Shown: positions 11,999 through 44,053, counted from the first letter of the stretch. The stretch: DNA of 64,000 bases from an uncultured Bacilli bacterium (GCA_947631295.1 CANRKU010000001.1:6690-70689); one strand, 5' to 3'. A program made the numbers and translations. Notes: generated by a model not told the origin, from the sequence alone.

Positions 11999-13306
11999 TT
12001 ATGAGTAATTAGGCTGTATTAGTCTTTTTTTTACATGTATAAAATGGCTAATAGATACTACAACAATATTTACGCTTGATGCTATGATGAATCCGTAGAT
12101 TCCAATTCTCCATGATGAGAGAAAATATAGTAAAGATGTTTTTAAAATGATTCCTAAAATATTATCAAACATCACTTGTTTTGATAAATTCATTGCTTGC
12201 ATAGTAGCTGCTAATGGTAATTCAATATAATAAAAGAGAAAAGGAATAGCTAAAGCTCTCAAATAATTTCCACCATGAGTTGTACCATATATAAGATTTA
12301 AAAAAAAGGTGGGAAATAAAAATAAAATGATAGTAGTAGGTAGCCCAATGGATAACGAAATACCAATTGCTTGTTTTAATTTTCTTTTAATATAAGAAAA
12401 ATTTTTCTCCGTTGCCGCTTTGGAAATAACAGGCAATAAACTATTAGAGATAGCTCCTGTAAAGAAGCCTGGTAATAATAAAAGTGGCATAGAATATCCT
12501 GCTACAATACCATATTCTTGAGTAATAAAATTAGCACTATATCCAGCTTTTAACATTCCGGCTGTTAATAGAATAGGTTCTAAAAAATAGCCAATATTTC
12601 CAATTAATCTAGTGTTGGTATTCGGAATGGAAATTGCTAAAATATTTTTAATATTTCTTTTTTGTGGTTTGATATCATCTGAAGAAAATTTGATGCCTTT
12701 TGGTAGAAATAATAATAGAGTGATAATACTGGTAAATTCACTAACCATATTGACTAATACCAAAAAACTAACTGCATATACTAAATCAATTTTTAATAAT
12801 GTAGGTACTAATAGAATAGTTAAAGTTAATCTAACTATTTGCTCAATTACGTGACTGATAACATGAGGTAGCATTTTCTGCTTTCCAAAAAAATAACCTC
12901 TTAACATATTAGAAAGGGCTTCAAAAGGAAGAACGAGACTAATACATAAAATTGGTAAATAACATCGACTATCTTTTAATAAATCTATCGAAATGAATGA
13001 TGCAGAAAAGAGAATTATGGCAATTAATATTAAATCGAAAATCATAATAATGGGAATACTGGAAAATAGGAGATTTTTATTATTATATTGATCCTCACTT
13101 ACTAATTTAGATACACTAGTGGGGAGACTAAATTGTGCTAAAGACATAAATAAAGAAAAAGTTGGAAAAATTAACATATATAGTCCGATTCCTTCTAATC
13201 CAATTAATCTAGTATTTATAACTTTGATAATCATACCTAATATTTTAGTAATTAGACCGCCAATAATTAGAATAATAGTTGATCTGATAAAAGTTTCTTT
13301 CTTCAT
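11999..13306 (-). CDS. MOP-superfamily flippase (polysaccharide biosynthesis / SpoVB-like, Wzx/MurJ-like), 435 aa
   Basis: About 12 predicted TM helices and an N-terminus typical of the PST/SpoVB family (IRSTIILIIGGLITKILGMIIKVINTRLIG.EGIGLY). Confidence 0.7.
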   Translation of the reverse strand: MKKETFIRSTIILIIGGLITKILGMIIKVINTRLIGLEGIGLYMLIFPTFSLFMSLAQFSLPTSVSKLVSEDQYNNKNLLFSSIPIIMIFDLILIAIILFSASFISIDLLKDSRCYLPILCISLVLPFEALSNMLRGYFFGKQKMLPHVISHVIEQIVRLTLTILLVPTLLKIDLVYAVSFLVLVNMVSEFTSIITLLLFLPKGIKFSSDDIKPQKRNIKNILAISIPNTNTRLIGNIGYFLEPILLTAGMLKAGYSANFITQEYGIVAGYSMPLLLLPGFFTGAISNSLLPVISKAATEKNFSYIKRKLKQAIGISLSIGLPTTIILFLFPTFFLNLIYGTTHGGNYLRALAIPFLFYYIELPLAATMQAMNLSKQVMFDNILGIILKTSLLYFLSSWRIGIYGFIIASSVNIVVVSISHFIHVKKRLIQPNYS

Positions 13307-13475
13307 GAAATTATCACCTTATTAAATTTATATGTTATTTTGAGTAATTTTGAACTAAATATATTGATATTAAAAGTTTTGACTTGCTATCTAGATGTTC
13401 TTTTTTTTGATTATTTTTTATTAAATCTTTATTAAATTGAAAAATTCATATATAATAATTTATATAGTAGGTGGT

Positions 13476-13733
13476 ATGATGGAAATTTTGTTTTCAAGTA
13501 GCGAGGAATTAAAGAAAAGAGTGATGCCTGCTTTACGTATTAGAAAAAGAGAACTGAAAAAATTAAACTATGCTATTACGGAAGAAGAAATATGGAATTA
13601 TTTTGTAGAAAAATTTTGGAAAAAATCTTTTCAATTATCTCTTTATCAAATTGTGGATGATATTTTAAATAGAGAAATTGATATGCATATGATAAAATGT
13701 AGTTTTGGAGATGGTGTAAATGAGCAAAAATAA
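13476..13733 (+). CDS. small conserved protein (about 85 aa) preceding and overlapping relA; possibly a post-transcriptional-regulator (ComN/YrzD)-like protein
   Basis: The ORF ends 14 nt into relA. A GGTGGT RBS precedes the ATGATG start. The family assignment is tentative. Confidence 0.45.
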   Translation: MMEILFSSSEELKKRVMPALRIRKRELKKLNYAITEEEIWNYFVEKFWKKSFQLSLYQIVDDILNREIDMHMIKCSFGDGVNEQK

Positions 13734-15867
13734 AGAATATACAATCGATGATTTAATTGAAAAAGCAAGTGTTTATATTCCAGAAGAAGAAAATTTAAAT
13801 AAGATTAAAGATGCTTATCAATTTGCTGATATTTGTCATGGAGGTCAATATCGTAAATCAGGAGAACCTTATATTATTCATCCTTTAAATACAGCTATCA
13901 TCTTAACAACTGTTTATGCCGATACTGATACTTTAATTGCTGGATTGCTACATGATACTATTGAAGATTGTGGAATTGAGAAAGAAGAGTTAGAGGAAAA
14001 ATTTGGTAAAATAGTTGCTAACTTAGTTTATGGAGTATCTAAACTTGGAAGGATTCATTTTTCAACTGAAAATGAATATTTAATTGATTATTATAAAAAG
14101 ATTATTGTTGGTATGAGTGAAGATGTTAGAGTAATTATTGTGAAATTAGCGGATCGTTTACATAATATGAGAACTCTTTATGCTTTACCGATAGAAAAAC
14201 AAAAAAAAATAGCGAAAGAAACTTTAGAAATTTTGGCTCCTATTGCTCATCATTTAGGAATTCATAAAATTAAAAGTGAATTGGAGGATTTATCCCTTCG
14301 TTATTTAAAACCTGATGTTTTTTATGATATTGCTGAAAAATTAGATAAAACAAAATTAGAACGCGATAATACTGTTAATGATATGATGAATCTGGTGACA
14401 GATTTATTAAATGAACATAATATTCCCCATGAAATTAAGGGAAGAGCAAAAAGTATTTATAGTATTTATAATAAATTAAATAAAGGAAGAAAGTTTAGTG
14501 ATATTTATGATTTATTAGCATTAAGAATCTTAGTTAATACGGAACAAGAATGCTATTTGGCTCTTGGTATCATTCATTCTAAATTCAAGCCAATTCCTAA
14601 ACGTTTTAAGGATTATATTGCGATGCCCAAGACAAATATGTATCAGTCTTTACATACTACGGTATTTGGAAAAGATGGTTATTTGTTTGAAATTCAAATT
14701 CGTACTTATGATATGGATGAAGTAGCAGAAAATGGTATTGCATCTCATTGGGCTTATAAAGAACATAAAGATGCTAGTAAATTAATGCAAAATACTACCG
14801 AACAAAAGCTTCAATTTTTTAAATCTATCATTGAATTAAATGAAGATAAAATGAGTAGTGAAGAATTTGTAAATAGTGTTAAAGACGAGGTTTTAAATAA
14901 TAATATTTATTGTTTTACTCCTAAAGGAGATATTATTGAATTACCAAAAGGTTCAACTCCAATCGATTTTGCCTATAAAGTTCATACAAGGATTGGGGAA
15001 ACAATGATAGGTGCTCTTGTCAATAATAGTATTGTACCATTGGATTATGAATTACATAGTAATGATATTGTTAAAATTAATACCTCTAAAAATTCGAATG
15101 GACCTTCACAAGAATGGTTAAAAATTGTGAAATCGTCACAGGCTCGAAATAAAATACGTGCTTTTTTTACTAAAAATGAAAGAGAAATATATATTGAACG
15201 TGGAAAAGACTTTTTAGAAAAAGAGCTTAGAAAAAGAAAAATTCCTTTTTCTGATTTCTTTACAACTGAAAATCAAAATAAATTGTTAAAAGAATTTAAG
15301 ATTAATGATTTGGAAGAATTGTATTTAGAAATAGGAAATGGAAAGCATGCTGCTAGTACTGTTGTTAATATTCTATATAGAAAGGAAGAGGAAATAAAAC
15401 CAAAAAAAATTATTTCCAAAGCAGTAGATAATAATTCTGATATAGTTGTTTCTGGTATTGATAAAGTTAAAGTTAATTTGGCTAATTGTTGCAATCCTAT
15501 TCCAGGAGATGATATCATAGGATATATTACGAAAGGAAATGGGATTAGTGTTCATAGAAGATGTTGTCATAATTTAGAATATTTAGATAATCGTATTATA
15601 AGAGTGGATTGGAATTCTATTACTAGTGAAAAATATGAAACGGTAATTTTAGTTCATTCTAATACTACTGAAAATAAAATTTTAGAAATGATTCAAAAAA
15701 TGAGTATGTTTGATATTCGTATTGATCGTTTTTTAACGATGCATGATAAGGATGATACTATTTATGAAATTACTTTATATGTTCAAAATTTAGAATGTTT
15801 AAAAAAGATTTTTAAAGAGTTAGAAAAATTATCTTATGTGATAAAAATAGAAAGGTTAATTCGATGA
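13720..15867 (+). CDS. relA: bifunctional (p)ppGpp synthetase/hydrolase RelA/SpoT
   Basis: 715 aa with an HD domain (HPL..A..L....D..TLIAGLLHDTIEDC), a RelA/SpoT synthetase domain, TGS and ACT domains. Followed by dtd as in Bacillus. Confidence 0.95.
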   Translation: MSKNKEYTIDDLIEKASVYIPEEENLNKIKDAYQFADICHGGQYRKSGEPYIIHPLNTAIILTTVYADTDTLIAGLLHDTIEDCGIEKEELEEKFGKIVANLVYGVSKLGRIHFSTENEYLIDYYKKIIVGMSEDVRVIIVKLADRLHNMRTLYALPIEKQKKIAKETLEILAPIAHHLGIHKIKSELEDLSLRYLKPDVFYDIAEKLDKTKLERDNTVNDMMNLVTDLLNEHNIPHEIKGRAKSIYSIYNKLNKGRKFSDIYDLLALRILVNTEQECYLALGIIHSKFKPIPKRFKDYIAMPKTNMYQSLHTTVFGKDGYLFEIQIRTYDMDEVAENGIASHWAYKEHKDASKLMQNTTEQKLQFFKSIIELNEDKMSSEEFVNSVKDEVLNNNIYCFTPKGDIIELPKGSTPIDFAYKVHTRIGETMIGALVNNSIVPLDYELHSNDIVKINTSKNSNGPSQEWLKIVKSSQARNKIRAFFTKNEREIYIERGKDFLEKELRKRKIPFSDFFTTENQNKLLKEFKINDLEELYLEIGNGKHAASTVVNILYRKEEEIKPKKIISKAVDNNSDIVVSGIDKVKVNLANCCNPIPGDDIIGYITKGNGISVHRRCCHNLEYLDNRIIRVDWNSITSEKYETVILVHSNTTENKILEMIQKMSMFDIRIDRFLTMHDKDDTIYEITLYVQNLECLKKIFKELEKLSYVIKIERLIR

Positions 15868-16301
15868 GAGTTTTAGTTCAAAAAAGTAAAAAAGCTTGTT
15901 GTAGAGTAGATAATAAAATAGTTGGAAAAATTGATGAAGGACTTGTATTATTTGTTGGTTTTACTTCTTCAGATACTATAGAACAAGTTGAATATTTATG
16001 TAGAAAAATTGTAAATCTTAGAATTTTTAATGATCAAAATGGAGTGATGAATCAAAGTATTTTGGAACAGAAAAAACCACAAGTGTTATCTATTTCTCAA
16101 TTTACTTTATATGCTAATACTAAGAAAGGTAATCGACCAAGTTATGTAGAGGCATTAAATGGAGAAAGTGCAAAAATATTATATGATTTATTTAATCAAG
16201 AATTAAGAAAGTATGTAGCAGTAGAAACTGGTATTTTTGGTGCTAATATGCAGATTGATTTTATAAATGACGGTCCAACTACTATTTGGTTAGAAAGGTG
16301 A
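15864..16301 (+). CDS. dtd: D-aminoacyl-tRNA deacylase
   Basis: 145 aa containing the SQFTLYA and NDGPTT motifs. Overlaps the relA stop by 4 nt. Confidence 0.9.
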   Translation: MRVLVQKSKKACCRVDNKIVGKIDEGLVLFVGFTSSDTIEQVEYLCRKIVNLRIFNDQNGVMNQSILEQKKPQVLSISQFTLYANTKKGNRPSYVEALNGESAKILYDLFNQELRKYVAVETGIFGANMQIDFINDGPTTIWLER

Positions 16302-16305
16302 TAGT

Positions 16306-17370
16306 ATGAGTAATAAATTAAATTATCGTTTAGTTAATACTTTATTATTAATGGCAATTATTTATATTATTGTTGCTACTAGTAATTATTGGGGTGGAAT
16401 TCTTCTAAAAGTATTTAATATTTTAGTTCCTTTTCTGTTAGCTTTTGTTTTTGCTTACATTTTAAATCCTTTTGTTAAAAAGTTAGAAGAAAAAGGAATT
16501 CGCAGAAGCTTGGCTATGATTTTTGTTATCTTAGTTGTCTTTGGTATATTTATTGGACTTTTGTGGATTACAGTTCCAGCTGTTTATGAACAGTTAGTAT
16601 CTTTTTCAAAAACAATTGCACAAGTAATTAATAATTTGTCTGGTAGATTGGATATTGATTTAGGATCTTATCAAATAGCAATTATGGATACATTAAATCA
16701 AATGATAAAAGATTTGGGTAGTTATATTTCTACAGGTACGATTGATATTTTAGGAAAAAGTGTTAATTTTTTAACTAATATGATTATTGTTTTTATCGTT
16801 GGAATTTATTTATTAATCGATATGGATAAGATACGTCATTTTATTAAAAAAACATTGTCATCTCATAAAAAAGAATTTCAATATGTGAAAGCAATTGATC
16901 GTGAGATGAGTGCTTATTTACATGGATTAGCTATTTTTATGATTATTCAATTAATAGAGTACTCCATTTTATTTAAAATTGTGGGACATCCTAGTTGGTT
17001 ATTATTAGGACTTTTGGCTTGTGTTACAACTGTTATTCCTTATTTTGGAGGAATTATTACGAATATTATTGCTGTTGTTACTGCTAGTGTAATTTCAACA
17101 AAACTTTTTATTGCGACATTATTCATTACTCTTGTTTTTCCAAATATAGATGGCTATGTCATTTCTCCTCATATTTATGGTAAAACTAATAATATTAATC
17201 CTATTTTAGTTATTTTTACTGCTGGTGTATGTAGTAGTTTGTTTGGAATTCTTGGAATTACAATGGGGCTTCCTCTTTATATTATTGTTCGTACTACATG
17301 GTATTTTTTTCATCAAGATATTAAAGAATATATTGTAGATATGAAGGAAGATAAAAATGCAACCAAGTAA
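16306..17370 (+). CDS. AI-2E family transporter (UPF0118/PerM-like) membrane protein
   Basis: 354 aa with 7-8 TM helices and a family-typical ...ILNPFV..LE..G.RRSLA.. segment. Confidence 0.8.
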   Translation: MSNKLNYRLVNTLLLMAIIYIIVATSNYWGGILLKVFNILVPFLLAFVFAYILNPFVKKLEEKGIRRSLAMIFVILVVFGIFIGLLWITVPAVYEQLVSFSKTIAQVINNLSGRLDIDLGSYQIAIMDTLNQMIKDLGSYISTGTIDILGKSVNFLTNMIIVFIVGIYLLIDMDKIRHFIKKTLSSHKKEFQYVKAIDREMSAYLHGLAIFMIIQLIEYSILFKIVGHPSWLLLGLLACVTTVIPYFGGIITNIIAVVTASVISTKLFIATLFITLVFPNIDGYVISPHIYGKTNNINPILVIFTAGVCSSLFGILGITMGLPLYIIVRTTWYFFHQDIKEYIVDMKEDKNATK

Positions 17371-17623: not shown

Positions 17624-18295
17624 ATGTCTATTATTAAACAAAATCGAAGAGGGAGCATTATTGTAATTAGTGGTCCAAGTGGTTCTGGAAAAGGAACAAT
17701 TATTAATGAAATATTAAAGAAAAATAAAAACTGTTGGTTATCAGTTTCTACTACTAGTCGTCCAATTAGAGAAAATGATATTCCTGGTGTTACTTATAAT
17801 TTTGTTACTAAAGAAGAATTTGAAAAGAAAATCCAAGATGGTTATTTTTTAGAATATAATAATTACGTTGGAAATTATTATGGTACCCCTAAAGAATTTA
17901 TATTTAGTAAGATACAACAAGGAATCGATGTTATTTTAGAAATCGAAATTAATGGTGCACAAAATATAAAGAAATTGATACCTGAAGCTATTTTTATCTT
18001 TATCATGCCACCATCTATTGAAGAACTACAACAGCGATTAAGAAATCGTGGTACTGATAGCGAAGAAAAAATATTAGAACGATTTAAAGTTGCTTATCAA
18101 GAGATTAATGAGGTAACAAAATATAATTATGTAGTAGTAAATGATAAATTGGAAGAAGCAGTAGAAAAGGTACATTCTATTTTATTAGCTGAAAAATGTA
18201 GGGTGGATCGTATCGAAGAAGTATTTTTAAACAATAAAGAAGAAACTATTCATGAAAAATTAGTTGATAATAAACAATTTGATAATAGTAAATAA
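17624..18295 (+). CDS. gmk: guanylate kinase
   Basis: Has a P-loop (ISGPSGSGKGT) and the Gmk core. The start was set at the ATG following an AAGGGGTGA RBS. Confidence 0.9.
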   Translation: MSIIKQNRRGSIIVISGPSGSGKGTIINEILKKNKNCWLSVSTTSRPIRENDIPGVTYNFVTKEEFEKKIQDGYFLEYNNYVGNYYGTPKEFIFSKIQQGIDVILEIEINGAQNIKKLIPEAIFIFIMPPSIEELQQRLRNRGTDSEEKILERFKVAYQEINEVTKYNYVVVNDKLEEAVEKVHSILLAEKCRVDRIEEVFLNNKEETIHEKLVDNKQFDNSK

Positions 18296-18307
18296 TAAAA
18301 GACCGTT

Positions 18308-19225
18308 TTAAAAAATAACGGTCTTTAATATTCTAGAAGTATTTGCGAAATTAAGTTTGGCAATTTCTTTTAATTTGTCACTACCATATTTTTCAACAAT
18401 TTCTTCTCCAATAGTATCTACTTGAGGTCCAGCTCCTTTAGGAAGAGGAATATGCAAACTATCAGAAAGCTTATCAAACTCTTTTAAAAATAAATATCTA
18501 CTAATGACACTACTACAAGCAACAGCTAGATTCTTATCTTCTGCTTTGGTCATAAATGTTATGCCTCTTTGTATTTCTGATGATTCTTTAATATAATCAT
18601 AGTAACGATTTTCTTTCGCAAATTCATCCACAATAATATAATCATAAGATTCTTTTGTAGTTTGTACCATTTGATATAAAACTTTATTGTGCATAATTGC
18701 TTTAATTTTATTCATGTTATTATCAGAATGTCTTTCATTATATTCTTGATTCGTTAAAATAATACTCTTATAGGAAATTCTTTTGGCAACTTGAGGAGCA
18801 ATTTCTAAAATCTTTTCATCTGTTAATTTTTTGGAATCTTTAATCCCTAATTTTTCTAAAAATTCAATATCTTCTTTTTTAACAAAACTAGCTGTAACGA
18901 CAATTGGACCAAAATAATCTCCTGTTCCAACCTCATCAGATCCAATAGAAGAACAGTAATAATATTTTTTTTCTTTTTCTTTTATTTCAGGACTATTTTT
19001 TTTATTTTGGCCATCCATTTCGAGCCACATAGCTGAATCAATATCAGCACTAGTTCCTTGAAACATGATTTTTCCACTTTCGTACATGGTAACTACTGTA
19101 TCTCCATCTTGTGCTTGAAAGATAACATAGGGAATTACTTTATCTCTTTTTTTATCTTCATAATATTTGATAATTTTTTCTTTTGTTTTTTCACTAACGC
19201 GAATTACACAGTTCATAGATTTCAC
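18308..19225 (-). CDS. rnhC: ribonuclease HIII
   Basis: 305 aa with an N-terminal DUF3378 region and an RNase HII/HIII catalytic domain (CSSIGSDEVGTGDYFGP). Confidence 0.85.
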   Translation of the reverse strand: MKSMNCVIRVSEKTKEKIIKYYEDKKRDKVIPYVIFQAQDGDTVVTMYESGKIMFQGTSADIDSAMWLEMDGQNKKNSPEIKEKEKKYYYCSSIGSDEVGTGDYFGPIVVTASFVKKEDIEFLEKLGIKDSKKLTDEKILEIAPQVAKRISYKSIILTNQEYNERHSDNNMNKIKAIMHNKVLYQMVQTTKESYDYIIVDEFAKENRYYDYIKESSEIQRGITFMTKAEDKNLAVACSSVISRYLFLKEFDKLSDSLHIPLPKGAGPQVDTIGEEIVEKYGSDKLKEIAKLNFANTSRILKTVIF

Positions 19226-19333
19226 CTTCTTCTAATCTTCTAACATGATTATACTCAATTTTTTTTTCTTTTACAACCAATCAATAGACAAAATTAAGAA
19301 AATAAGATATGATTATAATAAGGTGTGAGTGTT

Positions 19334-22300
19334 ATGAAAATAACTAATAATGTATTAATAAAAGTAACTAATGATGATTTGATAAATGGTACTTTTACTA
19401 TTCCTGATGGTATCGTTTCTATAGGTGATTCTGCTTTTGACTTTTGTAGCCATTTAGAATCTGTTATCATTCCTGATAGCGTTATCAGCATTGGAGATTT
19501 TGCTTTTAATTATTGTGAGTCGTTACATTCTGTTATTATTCCTGATAGTGTCGTCCATATGGGTAAAACTGTTTTTCACCAATGCAAATCTTTACAGTCT
19601 GTAATATTATCAACTAATCTTACTAGTATCGAAGATTTTACTTTTCGTAGCTGCCAGTCTTTAATTTCTATTACTATACCCAAAATGGTTACTAAAATTG
19701 GCAATTATGCTTTTTCTAATTGTCTTTCTTTAAAATCTATTAATGGATTAGAAGGGGTTGTTGAGTTAGGCGATAGAACATTCCAAAATTGTAAATCTTT
19801 ATCTTCAATAGAATTATCTGAAAATCTTATAGATATTGGTCAAGAAGCCTTTTCTAATTGCGAATCTTTAACTAGCATCATGATACCTAAAAAAGTAAAA
19901 AAAATAAAAAAAGCTACCTTTGATGGGTGCCATTCATTAATATCTATATCATTATCTGACTCTATTGAAAGCATTGAAACAAAAGCTTTTAATAATTGCC
20001 CAATTGAAAATATAAATACACCATGGGGAGATTATCATATAACGCATCCTACTACTGAAAATGTTGCTAGTAGTTATCTTTATCTTTATGTAAATTCTAT
20101 CTTACAAGAAAAATTTAGTTCTTTAGCAGATTTTATTAATACTAATAATTCTATTTATGATTGCTTTATGAATAATAATTATCTTTTAGATCAAAATGCT
20201 ATTCAAAAATTTAAAAATTTATTTTATAAAATGAGAAGAACTTATGATATCAATGGAAATTTGTTCCATTCAATGGATTTGGAAATAACTGATAAATTTA
20301 ATTTAAATACTTGGAATCGTATTAAAAATGTTTTTGATTGGCGTGATACCTCCGAATTAGCACAATCTTTTAGTGAAATGATGAAAGTTTTTGGATTATT
20401 TGAAAATGATAGCGAAAAAGAAAAAAGAATTTCAGATTTTATTCATTTTTTTCGTGAAGATGACTTTTTTCTTACAAGTAAGCAATTTTCTGATTTAATT
20501 TCATGTTATTCTAATATGTCTCAAGTAATAGTTGATTCTTTTGAAAAGAAAGAGAAAAAATCTATAGTATGTAAACCAAATGTAGATATTCCTACTCAAT
20601 TTCAACCTTATTTAAAAAAGGAATTATCAGATCAAGTTATTAAATATATTAAAAGATTAGATGGTAGTTATGGAAAACGTATTAATGATTTTGTTAAAGA
20701 AAATTATGAAACTCATTACTTTGAAATCTATCAATTAAAGGAAGAATATTGTAACAATAATCATAGTATAAATCATTTATTATTTTATCATGATTTACTA
20801 GGCCATATTAATTATAGTAGTCTTCATCGTATATTTGATGGATGTGAATTAAAATTTAATCCTGATTTTTATCATTTTTTTAGAGATAATTTAGAATTTA
20901 TTTTACAGGATGAAAAATTACAGTCTCAAGTAAAAAATATCCAGAAGAATTTTGAAAAAATGAAAAATCATTATTTCAATCAATCAGGAGTAAAAGAAAT
21001 CACTTTAAAACAAGCACTTGATTATTTAGAAAATATTACCTTTGATTATCATGATGGAAATTATGAATTAGCACTGGATGTCAAAAGAGCTGGGGTAAAG
21101 AATGAAGAAGCCTTTCTTTATTATCAAAAAGTATTTGAAGAAAATGATGTTAGAAAATTAAGTTCTTTAATAAAAAGAAGCCATATTTATGAAATTGATG
21201 GCTATACGATTCAAGCAGAATTATTAAGAAAAGACGATAGTTTTGGTATGTTAGTAGGAGAAGTTAACTATACCGATTGTTGTCAAGCATTTGGTGATTT
21301 AGGTCATAATTGTATGGCCCATGCAGTAAGTAGTGATGATGGAGGAATCTTTGTTACCAGATTATTAAAAGATGGAGAATGGATTTTACTAACAGAGTCA
21401 TGGGATTGGCAGAATAATAATATTTATTGTCATGATAATATCGAAGGAACACCTTATTTCAAAAAAGATGAAAGATTAAAAAAAGCAGTAGCAGAGGTTT
21501 ATCGTTTAGATGGAGAAGCTATTATTGAAAAAAGTAAAGAAGAGGTATTAAAATATATAAAAACAAGAAGAAAAGTAATTGAGAAATCATCATTACCTAA
21601 TAAAGAAAAAGAATTGGAATTATTAAGAGAGTTAGAACAAAGAGAAGTAATTCGCTTAGTAACAGTAGGATCTGGAAATGATGATTTAGGACTTTCTCGT
21701 TATTTTCAAAGATCCATTCAAGTAAATCAAGAACAGATTATCGCCTCACAAAGATTTACCTTAGAAAACTTTCAACCAGTTAATTATAATTCAAATCAAC
21801 CATATTTTGATGAGACTCATGGTTCTTATACTGATAGCGGTATAAAACAGTATATGATAGCAGGAAGTATAGAAGAATTATGTTTGGGGAAATTAGAACC
21901 ATTAGTACCTATTTATCGAGATGAAAGAAGAGTCATCTTAGAAGAGAAAGAAAATATTAGAAATTATACGGTAAATAAAATCAAGAATATGGAAAAAGAA
22001 ATTTATCCAAAAGAGATGTATCAATATCAAACATCTCATCAAGATGATTTTAGTGATTCTAATATTTATTTAGGAGAAGATTGGTACTTAATTTATGAGG
22101 AAAAAGAAGATAATGGTATTTATATATCTGATTTAGTGAAAACAACTCCAACATTAGGAGATGAAATAAAGGATCAAAATCAAGAAATTATGAAAGTAAT
22201 CTATGATTTAGTAAGAAAATATGATTATATCGAAGCAGATTTAAAAGAGGATACCTCCTATTTATTATATTTAATCAATAAAAAGTTAGGATATTTTGAA

Positions 22301-22504
22301 CAAATAGGAGAAGATATTAGTTATCCATTCCAAAATAGAAATCAACAAAAAGAAATAACAGAACAAGAACAAGAAGATATATTAAAACAAATGAAAGAAA
22401 TTAAGAAGAAAAAAAATCCAGAATTAATCATGCATCATATTATCTTTCAAAAAGGAAAACTTTTTCAATTAGAAGAAGAAGAAGAAGCTATCAAACGTCG
22501 TTAA
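19334..22504 (+). CDS. BspA-type leucine-rich-repeat protein, paralog 1 (variable N-terminal LRR region + conserved about 560-aa C-terminal module); no signal peptide
   Basis: LRR_5-type units (IPDSV.SIGD.AF..C.SL) occupy the first about 230 aa. The C-terminal 1.68 kb is nearly identical to that of paralogs 2 and 3. The ATG at 19334 follows an AAGGTG RBS. Confidence 0.85.
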   Translation: MKITNNVLIKVTNDDLINGTFTIPDGIVSIGDSAFDFCSHLESVIIPDSVISIGDFAFNYCESLHSVIIPDSVVHMGKTVFHQCKSLQSVILSTNLTSIEDFTFRSCQSLISITIPKMVTKIGNYAFSNCLSLKSINGLEGVVELGDRTFQNCKSLSSIELSENLIDIGQEAFSNCESLTSIMIPKKVKKIKKATFDGCHSLISISLSDSIESIETKAFNNCPIENINTPWGDYHITHPTTENVASSYLYLYVNSILQEKFSSLADFINTNNSIYDCFMNNNYLLDQNAIQKFKNLFYKMRRTYDINGNLFHSMDLEITDKFNLNTWNRIKNVFDWRDTSELAQSFSEMMKVFGLFENDSEKEKRISDFIHFFREDDFFLTSKQFSDLISCYSNMSQVIVDSFEKKEKKSIVCKPNVDIPTQFQPYLKKELSDQVIKYIKRLDGSYGKRINDFVKENYETHYFEIYQLKEEYCNNNHSINHLLFYHDLLGHINYSSLHRIFDGCELKFNPDFYHFFRDNLEFILQDEKLQSQVKNIQKNFEKMKNHYFNQSGVKEITLKQALDYLENITFDYHDGNYELALDVKRAGVKNEEAFLYYQKVFEENDVRKLSSLIKRSHIYEIDGYTIQAELLRKDDSFGMLVGEVNYTDCCQAFGDLGHNCMAHAVSSDDGGIFVTRLLKDGEWILLTESWDWQNNNIYCHDNIEGTPYFKKDERLKKAVAEVYRLDGEAIIEKSKEEVLKYIKTRRKVIEKSSLPNKEKELELLRELEQREVIRLVTVGSGNDDLGLSRYFQRSIQVNQEQIIASQRFTLENFQPVNYNSNQPYFDETHGSYTDSGIKQYMIAGSIEELCLGKLEPLVPIYRDERRVILEEKENIRNYTVNKIKNMEKEIYPKEMYQYQTSHQDDFSDSNIYLGEDWYLIYEEKEDNGIYISDLVKTTPTLGDEIKDQNQEIMKVIYDLVRKYDYIEADLKEDTSYLLYLINKKLGYFEQIGEDISYPFQNRNQQKEITEQEQEDILKQMKEIKKKKNPELIMHHIIFQKGKLFQLEEEEEAIKRR

Positions 22505-22640
22505 TTTTAGTTATCAAAAAAAGAAATAAAATAAACAAGAATAGGAGGTGAAAGGTATGCAAGTAATGAATGGTGTATTAACAGATGTTGAAGATAAAGA
22601 TATTATGAATGGTACTTTTATATTTCCTGAAGGAGTTACC
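20827..22640 (+). repeat. direct repeat copy 1 of about 1.8 kb (3' end of LRR gene 1 + intergenic + 5' head of gene 2)
   Basis: Nucleotide-level identity with 23936..25750 was judged by eye at essentially 100% over more than 1.6 kb. Confidence 0.8.
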
Positions 22641-25613
22641 AGTATAGGAGATTATGCTTTTGATCATTGCAAATCCTTAATTTCCATTATTATACCTGAA
22701 GGAGTTACTAGTATAGGAGATTATGCTTTTGCTAGTTGTAGATCCTTAACCTCAATTAATCTACCTGAAGGAGTTACCAGTATAGGAGATTATGCTTTTT
22801 TCCACTGTAGCCACTTAACTTCCATTACTATACCTGAAGGAGTTACCAGTATAGGAGCTTGTGCTTTTTATGATTGTATATCCTTAACTTCCATTACTAT
22901 ACCCGAAGGAGTTACTAGTATAGGATATTCTGCTTTTTGGAATTGTAACCCCTTAACTTCCATTACACTACCTGAAAGTATCACCAATATAGAAAAATCT
23001 GCTTTTGATGATTGTTCAATAAAAGAATTTCATACACCTTGGGGTAGTTGTGTAATGGGTGATTGTACTACCAAAGACATAATTCAAAAATATTTATATT
23101 TATATGCAAATTCTATTTTGAAAGAAAAATATTTATCTTTTGATGATTTCTTATCTAGTAATGATTTTATTTATGAATTTTTTGATGGTGCTATTATTTA
23201 TCATACCAACGCTATCATAAAATTCAAAAACTTATTTTACAAAATGAGAAAAGACTTTGATATTCCAAACGGACTATTTAATAGAATGAGCGTAGAAATG
23301 ACTGAAAAATTTGATTTGAAAACATGGAATCGTATTAAAAATATCTTTGATTGGCGAGGTTCTCCTGAAATGACAGAAGCATTTAATGAAATAATAGCAG
23401 TCTTTGGATTATTTGAAGAGGATAACGAAAAAGAAAAAAGAATTTTAGATTTTATCGATCTTTTTCAGAGAAAATCTTATATCATAACGAATGATGATTA
23501 TTTTAGAATGGATGATAATATTCATCCTTATTTTGAAAAAATAGAAACAACTTGTATGTTATTAAAAGAAAAAACAGATATTCTTACTAAATTTCAACTT
23601 TATTTAAAAAGAAGATTATCAGAATCGGAAATTAAGAAAATTAAAAAGTTAAATGGTACTTATGGGAAACAAATTAATGAGTTTTTAAAAGAAAAAACAG
23701 ATATTTCTACTCAATTTCAACCTTATTTAAAAAGAAGGTTATCAGAATCAGAAATTAGGAAAATTAAAAAATTAACTGGTACTTATGGAAAACAAATTAA
23801 TGAGTTTTTAAAAGATTATTATCAAGTTAGTATGGTAAAAGATTATCAATTAAAAGAAGAGTATTTGAATCAAAAAGACATTAAAAAGTATTTATTTTTT
23901 AAAACTGATTTACATGGTTATCTTACATATCATAGTCTTCATCGTATATTTGATGGATGTGAATTAACATTTCAACCTGATTTTTATCATTTCTTCATGG
24001 ATAATTTAGAATTTATTTTACAGGATGAAAAATTACAGTCTCAAGTAAAAAATATCCAGAAGAATTTTGAAAAAATGAAAAATCATTATTTCAATCAATC
24101 AGGAGTAAAAGAAATCACTTTAAAACAAGCACTTGATTATTTAGAAAATATTACCTTTGATTATCATGATGGAAATTATGAATTAGCACTGGATGTCAAA
24201 AGAGCTGGGGTAAAGAATGAAGAAGCCTTTCTTTATTATCAAAAAGTATTTGAAGAAAATGATGTTAGAAAATTAAGTTCTTTAATAAAAAGAAGCCATA
24301 TTTATGAAATTGATGGCTATACGATTCAAGCAGAATTATTAAGAAAAGACGATAGTTTTGGTATGTTAGTAGGAGAAGTTAACTATACCGATTGTTGTCA
24401 AGCATTTGGTGATTTAGGTCATAATTGTATGGCCCATGCAGTAAGTAGTGATGATGGAGGAATCTTTGTTACCAGATTATTAAAAGATGGAGAATGGATT
24501 TTACTAACAGAGTCATGGGATTGGCAGAATAATAATATTTATTGTCATGATAATATCGAAGGAACACCTTATTTCAAAAAAGATGAAAGATTAAAAAAAG
24601 CAGTAGCAGAGGTTTATCGTTTAGATGGAGAAGCTATTATTGAAAAAAGTAAAGAAGAGGTATTAAAATATATAAAAACAAGAAGAAAAGTAATTGAGAA
24701 ATCATCATTACCTAATAAAGAAAAAGAATTGGAATTATTAAGAGAGTTAGAACAAAGAGAAGTAATTCGCTTAGTAACAGTAGGATCTGGAAATGATGAT
24801 TTAGGACTTTCTCGTTATTTTCAAAGATCCATTCAAGTAAATCAAGAACAGATTATCGCCTCACAAAGATTTACCTTAGAAAACTTTCAACCAGTTAATT
24901 ATAATTCAAATCAACCATATTTTGATGAGACTCATGGTTCTTATACTGATAGCGGTATAAAACAGTATATGATAGCAGGAAGTATAGAAGAATTATGTTT
25001 GGGGAAATTAGAACCATTAGTACCTATTTATCGAGATGAAAGAAGAGTCATCTTAGAAGAGAAAGAAAATATTAGAAATTATACGGTAAATAAAATCAAG
25101 AATATGGAAAAAGAAATTTATCCAAAAGAGATGTATCAATATCAAACATCTCATCAAGATGATTTTAGTGATTCTAATATTTATTTAGGAGAAGATTGGT
25201 ACTTAATTTATGAGGAAAAAGAAGATAATGGTATTTATATATCTGATTTAGTGAAAACAACTCCAACATTAGGAGATGAAATAAAGGATCAAAATCAAGA
25301 AATTATGAAAGTAATCTATGATTTAGTAAGAAAATATGATTATATCGAAGCAGATTTAAAAGAGGATACCTCCTATTTATTATATTTAATCAATAAAAAG
25401 TTAGGATATTTTGAACAAATAGGAGAAGATATTAGTTATCCATTCCAAAATAGAAATCAACAAAAAGAAATAACAGAACAAGAACAAGAAGATATATTAA
25501 AACAAATGAAAGAAATTAAGAAGAAAAAAAATCCAGAATTAATCATGCATCATATTACCTTTCAAAAAGGAAAACTTTTTCAATTAGAAGAAGAAGCTAT
25601 CAAACATCGTTAA
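22557..25613 (+). CDS. BspA-type leucine-rich-repeat protein, paralog 2 (contains an internal 120-nt tandem duplication)
   Basis: AGGAGGTGA RBS. Carries LRR units of type IPEGVTSIGDYAF..C.SLTSI and the same C-terminal module as paralog 1. Confidence 0.85.
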   Translation: MQVMNGVLTDVEDKDIMNGTFIFPEGVTSIGDYAFDHCKSLISIIIPEGVTSIGDYAFASCRSLTSINLPEGVTSIGDYAFFHCSHLTSITIPEGVTSIGACAFYDCISLTSITIPEGVTSIGYSAFWNCNPLTSITLPESITNIEKSAFDDCSIKEFHTPWGSCVMGDCTTKDIIQKYLYLYANSILKEKYLSFDDFLSSNDFIYEFFDGAIIYHTNAIIKFKNLFYKMRKDFDIPNGLFNRMSVEMTEKFDLKTWNRIKNIFDWRGSPEMTEAFNEIIAVFGLFEEDNEKEKRILDFIDLFQRKSYIITNDDYFRMDDNIHPYFEKIETTCMLLKEKTDILTKFQLYLKRRLSESEIKKIKKLNGTYGKQINEFLKEKTDISTQFQPYLKRRLSESEIRKIKKLTGTYGKQINEFLKDYYQVSMVKDYQLKEEYLNQKDIKKYLFFKTDLHGYLTYHSLHRIFDGCELTFQPDFYHFFMDNLEFILQDEKLQSQVKNIQKNFEKMKNHYFNQSGVKEITLKQALDYLENITFDYHDGNYELALDVKRAGVKNEEAFLYYQKVFEENDVRKLSSLIKRSHIYEIDGYTIQAELLRKDDSFGMLVGEVNYTDCCQAFGDLGHNCMAHAVSSDDGGIFVTRLLKDGEWILLTESWDWQNNNIYCHDNIEGTPYFKKDERLKKAVAEVYRLDGEAIIEKSKEEVLKYIKTRRKVIEKSSLPNKEKELELLRELEQREVIRLVTVGSGNDDLGLSRYFQRSIQVNQEQIIASQRFTLENFQPVNYNSNQPYFDETHGSYTDSGIKQYMIAGSIEELCLGKLEPLVPIYRDERRVILEEKENIRNYTVNKIKNMEKEIYPKEMYQYQTSHQDDFSDSNIYLGEDWYLIYEEKEDNGIYISDLVKTTPTLGDEIKDQNQEIMKVIYDLVRKYDYIEADLKEDTSYLLYLINKKLGYFEQIGEDISYPFQNRNQQKEITEQEQEDILKQMKEIKKKKNPELIMHHITFQKGKLFQLEEEAIKHR

Positions 25614-25750
25614 TTTTTAGTTATTAAAAAAATAAAATAAACAAGAATAGGAGGTGAAAGGTATGCAAGTAATGAATGGTGTATTAACAGATGTTAAAGA
25701 TGATGATATTATGAATGGTACTTTTATATTTCCTGAAGGAGTTACCAGTA
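23936..25750 (+). repeat. direct repeat copy 2 of about 1.8 kb
   Basis: Identical to copy 1, and to copy 3 from about 27421 onward. Confidence 0.8.
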
Positions 25751-28700
25751 TAGGAAGAGGGGCTTTTTATGGTTGTTGGTCTTTAATTTCCATTACTATA
25801 CCAGAAGGAGTTATCAGTATAGGAGATTATGCTTTTTATAATTGTAAATCCTTAACTTTAATTACTATACCTAAAGGAGTTACCAGTATAGGAAAAAATG
25901 CTTTTGAGCATTGTAGCTCCTTAACTTCCATTACTATACCCAAAGGAGTTACTAGTATAGGATATTCTGCTTTTGCTAGTTGTAGATCCTTAACCTCAAT
26001 TACACTACCTAAAAGTATCACCAGTATAGGAAAATTTGCTTTTGATAGTTGTAGATCTTTAACCACAATTAATCTACCCGAAGGAGTTACCAGTATAGGA
26101 ACTGCTGCTTTTAATGGTTGTAGATCTTTAACCTCAATTAATCTACCCGAAGGAGTTACTAGTATAGGAGATTATGCTTTTTGGAATTGTAGATCCTTAA
26201 CTTCCATTACTATACCCGAAGGAGTTACTAGTATAGGATATTCTGCTTTTAATGGTTGTAGATCTTTAACCTCAATTAATCTACCCGAAGGAGTTACCAG
26301 TATAGGAGATGCTGCTTTTGATGATTGCTCAATACATGAACTACATACACCATGGGGTAGTTGTGAAATGGATGATTGTACTACCGAAGATATAATTCAA
26401 AAATATTTATATTTATATGCAAATTCTATTTTGAAAGAAAAATATTCATCTCTTGATGATTTCTTATCTAGTAATGATTTTATTTATGAATTTTTTGATG
26501 GTGCTATTATTTATCATACCAACGCTATCATAAAATTCAAAAACTTATTTTATAAAATGAGAAAAGACTTTGATATTTCTACAGAACTATGTGATAGAAT
26601 GAACCTAGAAATGACTGAAAAATTTAAGTTGAAGACATGGAATCGTATTAAAAATGTTTTTGATTGGCGTGATTCTATTGAAATGACAGAAGCCTTTAAT
26701 GAAATAATAGCAGTCTTTGGATTATTTGAAAATGATTTAGAAAAAGAAACTAGAATTTTAGATTTTATCGATCTTTTTGAAGAAAAATCTTATATCATAA
26801 CGAATGATGATTCTTTTGGAATGGATGTTAATAGTACGTCTTATTGCGAAAAAATAGAAACAACTTGTATGTTATTAAAGGATGGAATAGATATTCCTAC
26901 TGAATTTCAACCTTATTTAAAAGTAAGACTATCAGAATCAGAAATTAAGAAAATTAAAAAATTAACTGGTACTTATGGAAAACAAATCAATGAGTTTTTA
27001 AAATATTATTATCAGGTTAATATTTTCAAAGATTATCAATTAAAAAAAGAATATTTAGATCAAGAAGATATTAAAAAACGTATATTTTTTAAAACTGATT
27101 GGTATGGTCATCTTACATATCATAGTCTTCATCGTATATTTGATGGATGTGAATTAAAATTTAATCCTGATTTTTATCATTTCTTGATGGATAATTTAGA
27201 ATTTATTTTACATGATGAAAAACTACAGTCTGAAGTAAAAAATATCCAGAAGAATTTTGAAAAAATGAAAAAACATTATCTCTTTCAATCAGGAACTACA
27301 GAAATTACTTTAAAACAAGCTCTTGATTATTTAGAAAATATTACTTTTGATTATCATGATAGAAATTATGAATTAGCATTAGATGTTAAAAGAGCTGGGG
27401 TAAACGATGAAGAAGCTTTTCTTTATTATCAAAAAGTATTTGAAGAAAATGATGTTAGAAAATTAAGTTCTTTAATAAAAAGAAGCCATATTTATGAAAT
27501 TGATGGCTATACGATTCAAGCAGAATTATTAAGAAAAGACGATAGTTTTGGTATGTTAGTAGGAGAAGTTAACTATACCGATTGTTGTCAAGCATTTGGT
27601 GATTTAGGTCATAATTGTATGGCCCATGCAGTAAGTAGTGATGATGGAGGAATCTTTGTTACCAGATTATTAAAAGATGGAGAATGGATTTTACTAACAG
27701 AGTCATGGGATTGGCAGAATAATAATATTTATTGTCATGATAATATCGAAGGAACACCTTATTTCAAAAAAGATGAAAGATTAAAAAAAGCAGTAGCAGA
27801 GGTTTATCGTTTAGATGGAGAAGCTATTATTGAAAAAAGTAAAGAAGAGGTATTAAAATATATAAAAACAAGAAGAAAAGTAATTGAGAAATCATCATTA
27901 CCTAATAAAGAAAAAGAATTGGAATTATTAAGAGAGTTAGAACAAAGAGAAGTAATTCGCTTAGTAACAGTAGGATCTGGAAATGATGATTTAGGACTTT
28001 CTCGTTATTTTCAAAGATCCATTCAAGTAAATCAAGAACAGATTATCGCCTCACAAAGATTTACCTTAGAAAACTTTCAACCAGTTAATTATAATTCAAA
28101 TCAACCATATTTTGATGAGACTCATGGTTCTTATACTGATAGCGGTATAAAACAGTATATGATAGCAGGAAGTATAGAAGAATTATGTTTGGGGAAATTA
28201 GAACCATTAGTACCTATTTATCGAGATGAAAGAAGAGTCATCTTAGAAGAGAAAGAAAATATTAGAAATTATACGGTAAATAAAATCAAGAATATGGAAA
28301 AAGAAATTTATCCAAAAGAGATGTATCAATATCAAACATCTCATCAAGATGATTTTAGTGATTCTAATATTTATTTAGGAGAAGATTGGTACTTAATTTA
28401 TGAGGAAAAAGAAGATAATGGTATTTATATATCTGATTTAGTGAAAACAACTCCAACATTAGGAGATGAAATAAAGGATCAAAATCAAGAAATTATGAAA
28501 GTAATCTATGATTTAGTAAGAAAATATGATTATATCGAAGCAGATTTAAAAGAGGATACCTCCTATTTATTATATTTAATCAATAAAAAGTTAGGATATT
28601 TTGAACAAATAGGAGAAGATATTAGTTATCCATTCCAAAATAGAAATCAACAAAAAGAAATAACAGAACAAGAACAAGAAGATATATTAAAACAAATGAA

Positions 28701-28803
28701 AGAAATTAAGAAGAAAAAAAATCCAGAATTAATCATGCATCATATTACCTTTCAAAAAGGAAAACTTTTTCAATTAGAAGAAGAAGCTATCAAACATCGT
28801 TAA
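25663..28803 (+). CDS. BspA-type leucine-rich-repeat protein, paralog 3 (expanded array of about 9 near-identical 23-aa LRR units)
   Basis: The 5' 95 nt and the upstream intergenic region are near-identical to paralog 2. The C-terminal module is identical except for a diverged patch of about 300 nt (27180-27420). Confidence 0.85.
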   Translation: MQVMNGVLTDVKDDDIMNGTFIFPEGVTSIGRGAFYGCWSLISITIPEGVISIGDYAFYNCKSLTLITIPKGVTSIGKNAFEHCSSLTSITIPKGVTSIGYSAFASCRSLTSITLPKSITSIGKFAFDSCRSLTTINLPEGVTSIGTAAFNGCRSLTSINLPEGVTSIGDYAFWNCRSLTSITIPEGVTSIGYSAFNGCRSLTSINLPEGVTSIGDAAFDDCSIHELHTPWGSCEMDDCTTEDIIQKYLYLYANSILKEKYSSLDDFLSSNDFIYEFFDGAIIYHTNAIIKFKNLFYKMRKDFDISTELCDRMNLEMTEKFKLKTWNRIKNVFDWRDSIEMTEAFNEIIAVFGLFENDLEKETRILDFIDLFEEKSYIITNDDSFGMDVNSTSYCEKIETTCMLLKDGIDIPTEFQPYLKVRLSESEIKKIKKLTGTYGKQINEFLKYYYQVNIFKDYQLKKEYLDQEDIKKRIFFKTDWYGHLTYHSLHRIFDGCELKFNPDFYHFLMDNLEFILHDEKLQSEVKNIQKNFEKMKKHYLFQSGTTEITLKQALDYLENITFDYHDRNYELALDVKRAGVNDEEAFLYYQKVFEENDVRKLSSLIKRSHIYEIDGYTIQAELLRKDDSFGMLVGEVNYTDCCQAFGDLGHNCMAHAVSSDDGGIFVTRLLKDGEWILLTESWDWQNNNIYCHDNIEGTPYFKKDERLKKAVAEVYRLDGEAIIEKSKEEVLKYIKTRRKVIEKSSLPNKEKELELLRELEQREVIRLVTVGSGNDDLGLSRYFQRSIQVNQEQIIASQRFTLENFQPVNYNSNQPYFDETHGSYTDSGIKQYMIAGSIEELCLGKLEPLVPIYRDERRVILEEKENIRNYTVNKIKNMEKEIYPKEMYQYQTSHQDDFSDSNIYLGEDWYLIYEEKEDNGIYISDLVKTTPTLGDEIKDQNQEIMKVIYDLVRKYDYIEADLKEDTSYLLYLINKKLGYFEQIGEDISYPFQNRNQQKEITEQEQEDILKQMKEIKKKKNPELIMHHITFQKGKLFQLEEEAIKHR
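27118..28803 (+). repeat. direct repeat copy 3 (3' module only; diverged 27180-27420)
   Basis: Same sequence as copies 1 and 2 apart from a patch of clustered substitutions. No head segment follows because cvpA comes next. Confidence 0.8.
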
Positions 28804-28865
28804 TTTTTAGTTATCAAAATTAATAAAATGCGCTATAATGAATATAATAAGGAAGGGTGAAGTAT

Positions 28866-29579
28866 ATGAGTATTGTAGATGCACTAATTATATTAATGAT
28901 TTTAGTTTTTGGTGCAAAAGGCTTTAAAAATGGAGTTTTTAAACAATTGGTAACAACAGTTGGTTTTGTGATTGTAGTAATACTTGCATTTTATCTAAAG
29001 AATCCTATTGCTGAATTTTTAAGTTTACATTTACCATTTTTTACATTTGGTGGAACTTTTGCTAATGTAGCTAGTATTAATATAATTTTATATCAATTAA
29101 TTTCTTTTATCTTAGTAATTGTTGTCTTAGAGGCAATTCTAAATATTTTGATTAAATTCACAGGAATTCTTGAAAAAATATTAAAATTTACTATTATTTT
29201 AGGAATACCATCTAAAATATTAGGATTTATAGTGGGAATAGTAGAAGGTTTTATTGTTACTTTTTTAATTTTATTTTTCTTACGACAACCTGGATTTAAT
29301 CTTAAAATATTTGATGATAGTAAATTAACAAATCCTATTTTAAAATCAACACCAGTATTATCACAAGTAGCAGGAAATTTTGTTAATACATTTCAAGATT
29401 TATATGAATTAGGAAATGATTATTATGAACAACAAATGGATGAAAATACATTAAATTTAAAATCTATTGAAGTGATGCTTAAACATAAGATTATTACTCC
29501 CGATTATATTGTTAAATTGGTTGATGCCCATAAAATAGATGTAGTTGGAATTGATAATATTGTTAATAATTATAGATAG
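28866..29579 (+). CDS. cvpA: CvpA-family (colicin V production protein-like) membrane protein
   Basis: N-terminal TM helices carry the CvpA-like motif (IDALIILMILVFGAKGFKNGVFKQL). The ATG follows an AAGGAAGGGTGA RBS. Confidence 0.7.
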   Translation: MSIVDALIILMILVFGAKGFKNGVFKQLVTTVGFVIVVILAFYLKNPIAEFLSLHLPFFTFGGTFANVASINIILYQLISFILVIVVLEAILNILIKFTGILEKILKFTIILGIPSKILGFIVGIVEGFIVTFLILFFLRQPGFNLKIFDDSKLTNPILKSTPVLSQVAGNFVNTFQDLYELGNDYYEQQMDENTLNLKSIEVMLKHKIITPDYIVKLVDAHKIDVVGIDNIVNNYR

Positions 29580-44028: not shown

Positions 44029-44053
44029 TAAAGTAGTAGGAGAGAAGTAGCAT

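Follow-up and report, generated by a model that had tools for sequence, protein, structure and literature searches.

Three tandem leucine-rich-repeat genes in a gut Bacilli chromosome combine diverged 5' halves with a common 3' half that points to recent gene conversion

We analysed three consecutive genes, here called g1, g2 and g3, in a 64,000-nt stretch of DNA from an uncultured Bacilli bacterium (GCA_947631295.1, CANRKU010000001.1:6690-70689; this whole stretch is referred to as the window, and positions are counted from its first letter). Each gene encodes an N-terminal leucine-rich-repeat (LRR) domain, a helical mid region and a long C-terminal module common to all three. Taken as a whole, the locus is best explained, with a probability of roughly 0.7, as a tandem three-gene family that has undergone gene conversion and encodes putatively LRR-targeted tandem-GNAT proteins in the core chromosome of a low-GC gut Bacilli lineage. 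Very probably, the 3' 1.3-1.6 kb of g1-g3 was homogenised recently, by several gene-conversion or unequal-crossover events. The genes, their parts and the blocks of identity between them are as follows.

19325/19334-22504, 22548/22557-25613 and 25654/25663-28803, + strand: three consecutive open reading frames (ORFs), each given from an upstream GTG and from an ATG preceded by a ribosome-binding site (RBS)
19334-22504, + strand: g1, 1056 aa (P0001), with LRR_5 domain, helical region and predicted tandem GNAT-like module
19400-20020, + strand: LRR array of g1, nine units of 23 aa
20768-21934, + strand: helical lead-in, predicted Cys-rich GNAT-like domain 1 and coiled coil of g1, aa 482-870 of the 1059-aa ORF
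21935-22501, + strand: predicted GNAT-like domain 2 of g1, aa 871-1059
22557-25613, + strand: g2, 1018 aa (P0002), with six LRR units
22623-23036, + strand: LRR array of g2, six units of 69 nt
23558-23815, + strand: in-frame 123-nt tandem duplication in the mid region of g2 (2.1 copies, 91% matches)
25663-28803, + strand: g3, 1046 aa (P0004), with nine LRR units
25729-26349, + strand: LRR array of g3, nine units of 69 nt
21113-22442 (copy 1), 24228-25557 (copy 2) and 27418-28747 (copy 3), + strand: three-way identical block, 1,330 nt
20885-21112 and 24000-24227, + strand: exact extension of the block common only to g1 and g2
27183-27417, + strand: divergent patch specific to g3, directly 5' of the identical block, with about 22 differences from g1 and g2 and a synonymous divergence (dS) of 0.27

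Counted from the upstream GTG codons, the ORFs are 1059, 1021 and 1049 aa long, in agreement with the three consecutive genes of 1021-1059 aa that a preliminary description of this DNA had reported. The true starts are likely the ATGs at 19334, 22557 and 25663, each of which follows AAGGTG or AGGAGGTGA; the resulting lengths of 1056, 1018 and 1046 aa are those of the database entries P0001, P0002 and P0004.

In a three-way alignment, exact nucleotide identity extends over 1,558 nt between g1 and g2 (20885-22442 and 24000-25557), over 1,330 nt between g1 and g3 (21113-22442 and 27418-28747) and, running past the stop codon, over about 1,397 nt between g2 and g3 (24228-25624 and 27418-28814). 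The approximately 1.7 kb of essentially complete identity described previously is an overstatement, the exact core being 1.33-1.56 kb long; identity of at least 93% spans 1.95-2.45 kb. At its 3' end g1 carries a private single-nucleotide polymorphism (SNP), a 6-nt insert and another SNP, at positions where g2 and g3 agree. The breakpoints are specific to the pair compared, which implies more than one conversion event. The extension 20885-21112, matched only by g2, points to a separate conversion tract, and the sharply bounded patch of g3, which had been noticed before and which we place at 27183-27417, is unconverted sequence. The same patch is present in P0003, encoded on another NCBI contig, which has a module of the g3 type with an identical protein sequence, 13 LRR units and a mid region that is first g2-like and then g3-like. 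Whether it represents a strain variant or a fourth paralogue, P0003 is a recombinant.

Upstream of the blocks, nucleotide identity is 53-78% between g1 and either g2 or g3, and 64-98% between g2 and g3, excepting intervals that lie over LRR-unit insertions or deletions (indels) or over the g2 duplication. At the protein level, the 5' halves are 48-51% identical between g1 and g2 or g3, and 78-83% identical between g2 and g3, whose variable parts agree at 80-98% of nucleotides per 100-nt interval. The LRR segments, which were at first taken to be completely different, are thus strongly diverged in g1, but g2 and g3 are clearly similar to each other. The variable part is also not confined to 0.7-1.6 kb of LRR-coding sequence, as had been thought, but measures about 1.55-1.75 kb, part of which encodes a helical region of about 250 aa outside the LRR. 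Against the ~15% background divergence of the 5' halves, we calculate the chance of an exact run of ~1,400 nt as 0.85^1397, or about 1e-98.

Nei-Gojobori estimates of synonymous and nonsynonymous (dN) divergence by region sharpen the contrast between the two halves. Between g1 and g2 or g3, dS is 0.99-1.14 in the LRR region and 0.66-0.67 in the mid region; between the 5' halves of g2 and g3 it is 0.15-0.25; and in the constant block it is 0.000-0.004 for all pairs. Selection cannot explain the identical block, because purifying selection on the protein does not remove synonymous differences. Comparison with other species is decisive. Genes of two rabbit-gut metagenome-assembled genomes (MAGs; loci L004 and L012, the latter encoding P0044) match g2 and g3 at 75-80% identity in the mid region, where g1 reaches only 50-51%, so the split between g1 and the g2/g3 lineage is older than those speciations. 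In the constant region, the three genes are 100% identical to one another, while the L004 and L012 orthologues stand at 85% and 79%, and the 3' halves must therefore have been overwritten after speciation. The divergence of its 5' half marks g1 as an old paralogue whose 3' half was overwritten, and the low 5'-half dS between g2 and g3 (0.15-0.25) marks g3 as a recent tandem duplicate of g2. These data uphold the earlier view that gene conversion or unequal crossing-over, rather than old duplication, underlies the identity, with dS falling from 0.15-1.14 to 0.000-0.004. The 41-aa segment duplicated in g2 (KEKTDI.T.FQ.YLKRRLSESEI.KIKKL.GTYGKQINEFL) is not found in g1, g3 or P0003.

Evidence pointing the same way comes from an independent Hadza-gut MAG. 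Two unlinked paralogues there (L007 9000-12500 and L008 9350-12500) are 88% identical overall, but as a mosaic, with values between 78% and 100% in individual 100-nt intervals and one tract of the 3' module exact over 549 nt. It is possible that two strains were binned into this MAG.

Elsewhere in the window, a second tandem pair lies between polA and fpg (42820-43401 and 43465-44028; 193 and 187 aa; no Pfam hit). Its N-terminal halves are diverged and hydrophobic, while the C-terminal ~75 aa agree at about 97%, and a stretch of 295 nt (43112-43406 versus 43739-44032) at 94% of nucleotides. This pair is unrelated to the LRR family and repeats the pattern of the LRR array, with a diverged 5' and a homogenised 3' part, which suggests that tandem paralogues of this genome readily undergo partial conversion.

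The relatives in which we compared the locus are all MAGs. They are syntenic for RelA/SpoT, Dtd, AI-2E, gmk, rnhC, the family gene or genes, cvpA, trx, ftsA and ftsZ, and the slot between rnhC and cvpA holds exactly one family gene in L008 and in L015, compared with three here. Both single copies are disrupted, that of L008 (9449-12388) by an in-frame TAA at codon 359 and that of L015 (10001-12457) by two frameshifts, and these could be either true pseudogenes or MAG sequencing errors. The species represented by CATLHA01 (JGI/NCBI loci L001-L003, L006, L011 and L013) has at least eight copies, one on the left side of rnhC and seven or more on the right. Eight of these paralogues are diverged along their whole length, with protein identities of 26-41% in the LRR, 47-67% in the core and 38-61% at the C-terminus, and nucleotide identities of 65-75%. 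Because copy number varies in this way, from one (disrupted) through three to at least eight, the family evolves by birth-and-death, and the long direct repeats (each comprising module, spacer and the opening codons of the following gene) would favour gain and loss of copies by unequal crossing-over. The preliminary description had held that a single, stable copy in related genomes would speak against its account; this is half the case, as two relatives have one copy, in both of them disrupted, and another has at least eight.

L012 also carries a family gene beside gmk-rnhC. The L012 contig (CANRPT010000073.1, 3,909 bp) ends inside the constant module of this rnhC-adjacent gene, with P0044 truncated at about aa 664. 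This MAG may carry several near-identical module copies too, since short-read assemblies typically break in this manner at repeats. Inside the eight-gene array of the CATLHA01 species we also observed a protein of 1,911 aa that begins with a hydrophobic segment and carries NPCBM and F5_F8 type C carbohydrate-binding domains (L001 13591-19326, corresponding to 11438-17173 of the reconstructed CATLHA010000011.1 contig).

The BspA-type character of the N-termini, proposed earlier, is confirmed by Pfam LRR_5 matches in all three proteins (E = 6e-60 to 6e-75; 201-250 bits against a cut-off of 27.7). There are nine, six and nine units of 23 aa in g1, g2 and g3, respectively. In a comparison of 28 units from g2, g3 and P0003, the scaffold IPEGVTSIG--AF--C-SLTSIT is nearly constant, and variability concentrates at positions 10, 11, 14, 15 and 17 (2.3-3.1 bits versus ≤1.4 bits elsewhere). 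In the g1-g3 proteins we found no signal peptide, lipobox, transmembrane segment or wall-anchor motif (maximum Kyte-Doolittle 19-mer value 1.06-1.51), as had been remarked for the signal peptide, and a hydrophobic N-terminus is missing in 209 of 212 family members. Since there is neither a signal peptide nor a membrane segment, the proteins appear to be cytoplasmic.

The remaining ~830 aa outside the LRR gave no match in Pfam, NCBIfam, PHROGs, PADLOC or the PDB sequences, using phmmer and profile searches, consistent with the previous failure to name a family for it. Structure prediction was more informative. AlphaFold2 with a 50-sequence alignment returned a model with a mean predicted local distance difference test score (pLDDT) of 90.4 and a predicted template modelling score (pTM) of 0.80 (a further AlphaFold2 pLDDT was 89.8), and the top Foldseek hits were all GNAT acetyltransferases, with weak E-values of about 1e-3. 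The predicted structure shows the mixed beta-sheet and the element order b1-a1-a2-b2-b3-b4-a3-b5-a4-b6-b7 of the GNAT fold. According to the model, the module of about 580 aa comprises two GNAT-like domains (acyl-CoA N-acyltransferase fold) joined by a long coiled coil. The segment 20768-21934 contains the conserved motif VGE..YTNCCQ..G..C..H ... QSWxW ... CxDNIE, and the invariant residues of domain 1 are VG-E, C-C-Q, a Q-x-x-G-x-x-G/A loop before the alpha3-like helix, C..H, QSWxW and CxDNIE. The loop, C-C-Q-x-x-G-x-x-G/A, is one residue longer than canonical motif A (Q/R-x-x-G-x-G/A). Domain 2 has GEDWY, ISDL and a motif-B-like SYLLYL.NKKLGY, and at the motif A position an acidic, non-canonical P-x-L-[ED]-D-E-x-G-x-Q. 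Of the two, domain 1 is the more likely active site in the model, on account of its invariant Glu at the end of the beta4-like strand, its Cys-Cys-Gln and its Q-x-x-G-x-x-G/A loop. The cysteine cluster could, speculatively, be catalytic, structural (Zn) or related to redox or Fe-S chemistry.

To determine the breadth of the family, we ran a full HMMER scan of 1.84 billion representatives. With E-value limits of 1e-3, 1e-10 and 1e-30, the module was present in 1,618, 803 and 277 protein clusters (50% identity), respectively. Many members are 1,300-1,860 aa long with the module, conserved over about 600-740 aa, at the C-terminus, and their N-termini consist of LRR_5, DUF4116, FNIP or, most often, unannotated helical repeats. 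The recurring design of the family is thus an interchangeable repeat domain followed by the constant tandem-GNAT module, the latter as predicted. In the distant members P0129, P0141 and P0167 the N-terminal repeat, without Pfam match, reads ..YPE(L/I)F(L/V)..DAP.ELK..(F/Y)Y.. and recurs every ~100-150 aa. Distant members are single genes among housekeeping genes on gut contigs of 25-28% GC. A protein-pattern scan of metagenomes added only 7 distant loci with 29-37% identity, and a second, word-indexed homologue search with the core profile only 6 fragments. The module was not found in phage and plasmid collections by tblastn, so we rejected an origin in mobile elements.

In organisation, the closest analogue is the Shigella IpaH family. 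The 12 ipaH genes of Shigella encode LRR N-termini, with E3 activity in the conserved C-terminal regions (PMC4701945). In architecture alone, Shigella IpaH and Salmonella SspH-SlrP resemble the present proteins in being multicopy within one genome, with N-terminal LRRs that differ by copy and a shared, conserved enzymatic C-terminus; the LRR of IpaH/SspH selects the target, and in the array proteins it may by analogy do the same. Membership in that family fails, as there is no NEL (novel E3 ligase, catalytic Cys) domain: the C-terminus has a predicted tandem GNAT-like fold and does not match the NEL model. Other differences are the BspA/LRR_5 type of the repeats, the lack of a type III secretion system or secretion signal, the Gram-positive-lineage gut commensal host and the tandem arrangement of the copies in a core-gene locus. 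Like BspA-type LRR proteins (LRR_5, PF13306; Tannerella BspA and the BspA-like proteins of Trichomonas and Entamoeba), the array proteins have 23-aa units, which match over the N-terminal 140-210 aa; unlike them, they have no signal peptide or anchor, and the LRR makes up about 20% of the protein, the remaining 830 aa being an unrelated conserved module. With tandem-GNAT proteins (Legionella VipF, MshD, and FemABX with its coiled-coil arm) the module would share two GNAT-like domains and long helices. It differs from GNAT and FemAB proteins in lacking a sequence match to their models, in its non-canonical motif A and in a family-specific CCQ...C...H / CxDNIE cysteine cluster in domain 1; its predicted coiled coil lies between two domains, and not within one as in FemA. 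The module does not belong to FemABX, a family characterised by its FemAB sequence and by two GNAT domains of which the second holds an inserted coiled-coil arm.

Concerted evolution of bacterial paralogues by gene conversion is familiar from tufA/tufB, rRNA operons and the opa/pil families. As in those cases, the array shows identical tracts between diverged paralogues, mosaic blocks and dS near 0 within the tracts. It departs from them in that conversion is confined to the putative enzymatic half, the presumed target-binding half has diverged, and the donors are all full-length genes.

The gene-conversion reading has to be weighed against three other accounts of the DNA. It is improbable that the array is an assembly artefact, in which a collapsed or consensus-polished repeat was threaded three times and either the 100% identity or the tandem order is unreal. 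Such an error would be conceivable as the window is, like all the relatives, probably part of a MAG; the identical repeats of 1.3-1.6 kb are longer than short-read insert sizes; the L012 contig breaks off within the module, as at repeats; and an exact 53-mer of the block had 0 hits in the JGI metagenomes, which thus supply no independent DNA copy. A simple collapse would not, however, produce 5' block boundaries that differ by pair (20885, 21113 and 27418) or the private 3' SNPs and 6-nt insert of g1, and the 10%-diverged patch that abuts the identical block indicates that the copies were resolved individually. Partial independent support comes from the same module protein sequence in P0003 on a different contig and from the 549-nt exact tract of the L007/L008 mosaic in another MAG, and the unrelated pair at 42820-44028 has the same 5'-diverged, 3'-near-identical make-up. 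Smoothing erases only small differences, so near-identity next to upstream dS values of 0.15-1.1 would stay. A programmed system of recombinational variation, shuffling cassettes at high frequency to vary a binding protein in the manner of pilE/pilS, vlsE, MgPa repeats or shufflons, is very unlikely. It was suggested in the preliminary description by the combination of a variable binding end and a constant end in direct repeats, and the P0003 mosaic and the several conversion tracts could be read likewise; but every copy is a complete ORF with its own RBS, there is no silent or partial donor and no asymmetry of an expression site, the 10 kb to each side revealed no recombinase, invertase or reverse transcriptase, and inverted repeats are only weak, AT-rich and 70-85% matched. 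Moreover, it is the constant part that was homogenised and not the variable part that was shuffled, the synonymous divergence of the 5' halves is old and orthologues of these halves occur in other species, the eight-copy array of the CATLHA01 species shows no recent exchange, and proteins without an export signal have no obvious immune or phage exposure that would drive antigenic variation. An invertible promoter or shufflon was ruled out by the lack of clean inverted repeats, and a diversity-generating retroelement (DGR) by the lack of a reverse transcriptase and by synonymous divergence that, on inspection, is not base-biased. Slimmest of all are the odds that, in place of 3' conversion, the gene was triplicated recently and the 5' halves then diverged very fast under positive selection or by targeted hypermutation. 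The relatively high dN/dS of the 5' halves (0.4-0.7) and the focus of variation on five LRR positions would fit; synonymous sites have diverged as well, though (dS up to 1.1), the non-LRR mid region is equally diverged, the 75-80% orthologues of the g2/g3 5' halves elsewhere, with g1 at 50%, place the split before speciation, and no DGR-type reverse transcriptase lies nearby. We conclude that the conversion is ordinary homologous recombination, and not a dedicated switch.

With respect to function, our best-supported though tentative reading, which we hold at somewhat less than an even chance, is that the proteins are cytoplasmic repeat-targeted acyltransferases, based on the predicted fold: the repeats would choose the target, to which the constant module would transfer an acyl or acetyl group. 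An intracellular, immune-like repertoire, in which the repeats sense proteins of phages or mobile elements and the tandem GNAT acts as a toxic effector (one that might, for instance, acetylate aminoacyl-tRNA or some other essential target), is unlikely. GNAT toxins are a known class, and the pairing of a repeat sensor with a constant enzymatic domain, a copy number from 1 to at least 8 with pseudogenisation, the cytoplasmic location and the swapping of the N-terminal repeat type across the family would all suit such a role. Yet 0 PADLOC-DB families were matched, the genes sit among housekeeping genes and outside defence islands, no antitoxin or immunity gene is adjacent, there is no NTPase switch domain, and phage and plasmid collections lack the module. 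There is a small chance that the proteins are instead BspA-like surface adhesins, exported non-classically, with the constant module as an anchor or scaffold and not an enzyme. The strong LRR_5 matches, partial matches to the adhesin models HupY/LrrG and Gli349, the gut habitat and the large secreted NPCBM/F5_F8 protein within the array of a relative would be in line with this. Those adhesin models match the LRR only, far under their cut-offs (HupY equivalog, 75-116 bits versus 1250), and the missing export and anchoring signals in g1-g3 and in 209 of 212 relatives, the lack of secretion genes nearby and the predicted enzyme fold with invariant Cys, Glu, Asp and Gln all argue against a surface role.

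Several observations weigh against parts of the explanation that we prefer, namely a converted family of repeat-targeted tandem-GNAT proteins. In the LRR and mid regions, dN/dS is 0.4-0.7 overall and not >1, which falls short of demonstrating diversifying selection. The DNA probably comes from a MAG, in which repeat smoothing (bubble-popping or polishing) could have raised ~99% to 100% identity. Homogenisation is absent among the eight paralogues of the CATLHA01 species, which makes conversion episodic and not a fixed property of the family. No GNAT sequence model (Pfam Acetyltransf_*, NCBIfam) or PDB sequence matches the module, and the canonical Q/R-x-x-G-x-G/A is not exactly present in either domain, so one or both domains could be non-catalytic. 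Finally, no conserved partner genes accompany the array or its distant relatives, the surroundings consisting of housekeeping genes only.

The window is chromosomal, with a GC content of about 27%, and the surroundings of the array include the following features.

18308-19225, - strand: RNase HIII gene (RNase_HII + DUF3378), conserved left flank
19285-19313, + strand: promoter-like site 5' of g1, TAGACA-17-TATGAT, a pattern match only (10/12 of consensus)
22505-22556, + strand: spacer between g1 and g2, with RBS AGGAGGTGA
25614-25662, + strand: spacer between g2 and g3, with RBS AGGAGGTGA
28857-29579, + strand: cvpA-like gene, conserved right flank

The RBS AGGAGGTGA had been recorded before, and does precede both g2 and g3. 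One SNP, a 1-nt indel and a 4-nt indel distinguish the two spacers; the 63 nt that follow, covering the RBS and first codons, are exact, before identity drops to about 82-92%. Earlier, identity had been thought to run without a break through the stop codon and spacer into the next gene; it does pass the stop codon when g2 is compared with g3, and resumes over the RBS and first codons, but it is interrupted in the spacers. Because a promoter-like site precedes g1 and no terminator-like site was found between g1, g2 and g3, it is plausible that the three genes form a co-transcribed operon.

Upstream lie genes for a two-component system, PAP2, a flippase, RelA/SpoT, D-Tyr-tRNA deacylase, an AI-2E transporter, guanylate kinase and RNase HIII, and downstream those for CvpA, thioredoxin, FtsA, FtsZ and a MiaB-like radical-SAM enzyme. 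Within 10 kb on either side, transposase and secretion genes were looked for along with the recombination enzymes named above, and none was found. A 565-aa ORF without Pfam match (9525-11222, - strand) adjoins the two-component system. An inverted repeat between the convergent gmk and rnhC (AAAGACCGTT ... AACGGTCTTT, 9-nt loop, 18282-18342) is probably the shared bidirectional terminator of these two genes.

These findings describe a clean natural case of domain-restricted concerted evolution, with turnover of copy number at the same locus. The process of conversion is itself well known; what is new is a previously unannotated family with a predicted tandem-GNAT module and putative repeat-domain targeting. 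Module-bearing proteins come mostly from uncultured, reduced-genome Bacilli and include no characterised member. It is a bolder and rather doubtful extension that the module defines a large class of cytoplasmic, repeat-guided tandem-GNAT enzymes that give small-genome gut Bacilli a sensor-effector repertoire open to diversification, similar to the NLR clusters of plants or to IpaH sets. The interchangeable repeats (LRR_5, DUF4116, FNIP and novel helical types) would then recognise foreign or host proteins, which a Cys-rich and possibly metal- or redox-regulated GNAT pair would modify, and conversion would hold the effector constant as birth-and-death diversifies the recognition ends. More broadly, given a fold-level annotation together with a testable activity, thousands of hypothetical LRR proteins of gut metagenomes would gain an annotation.

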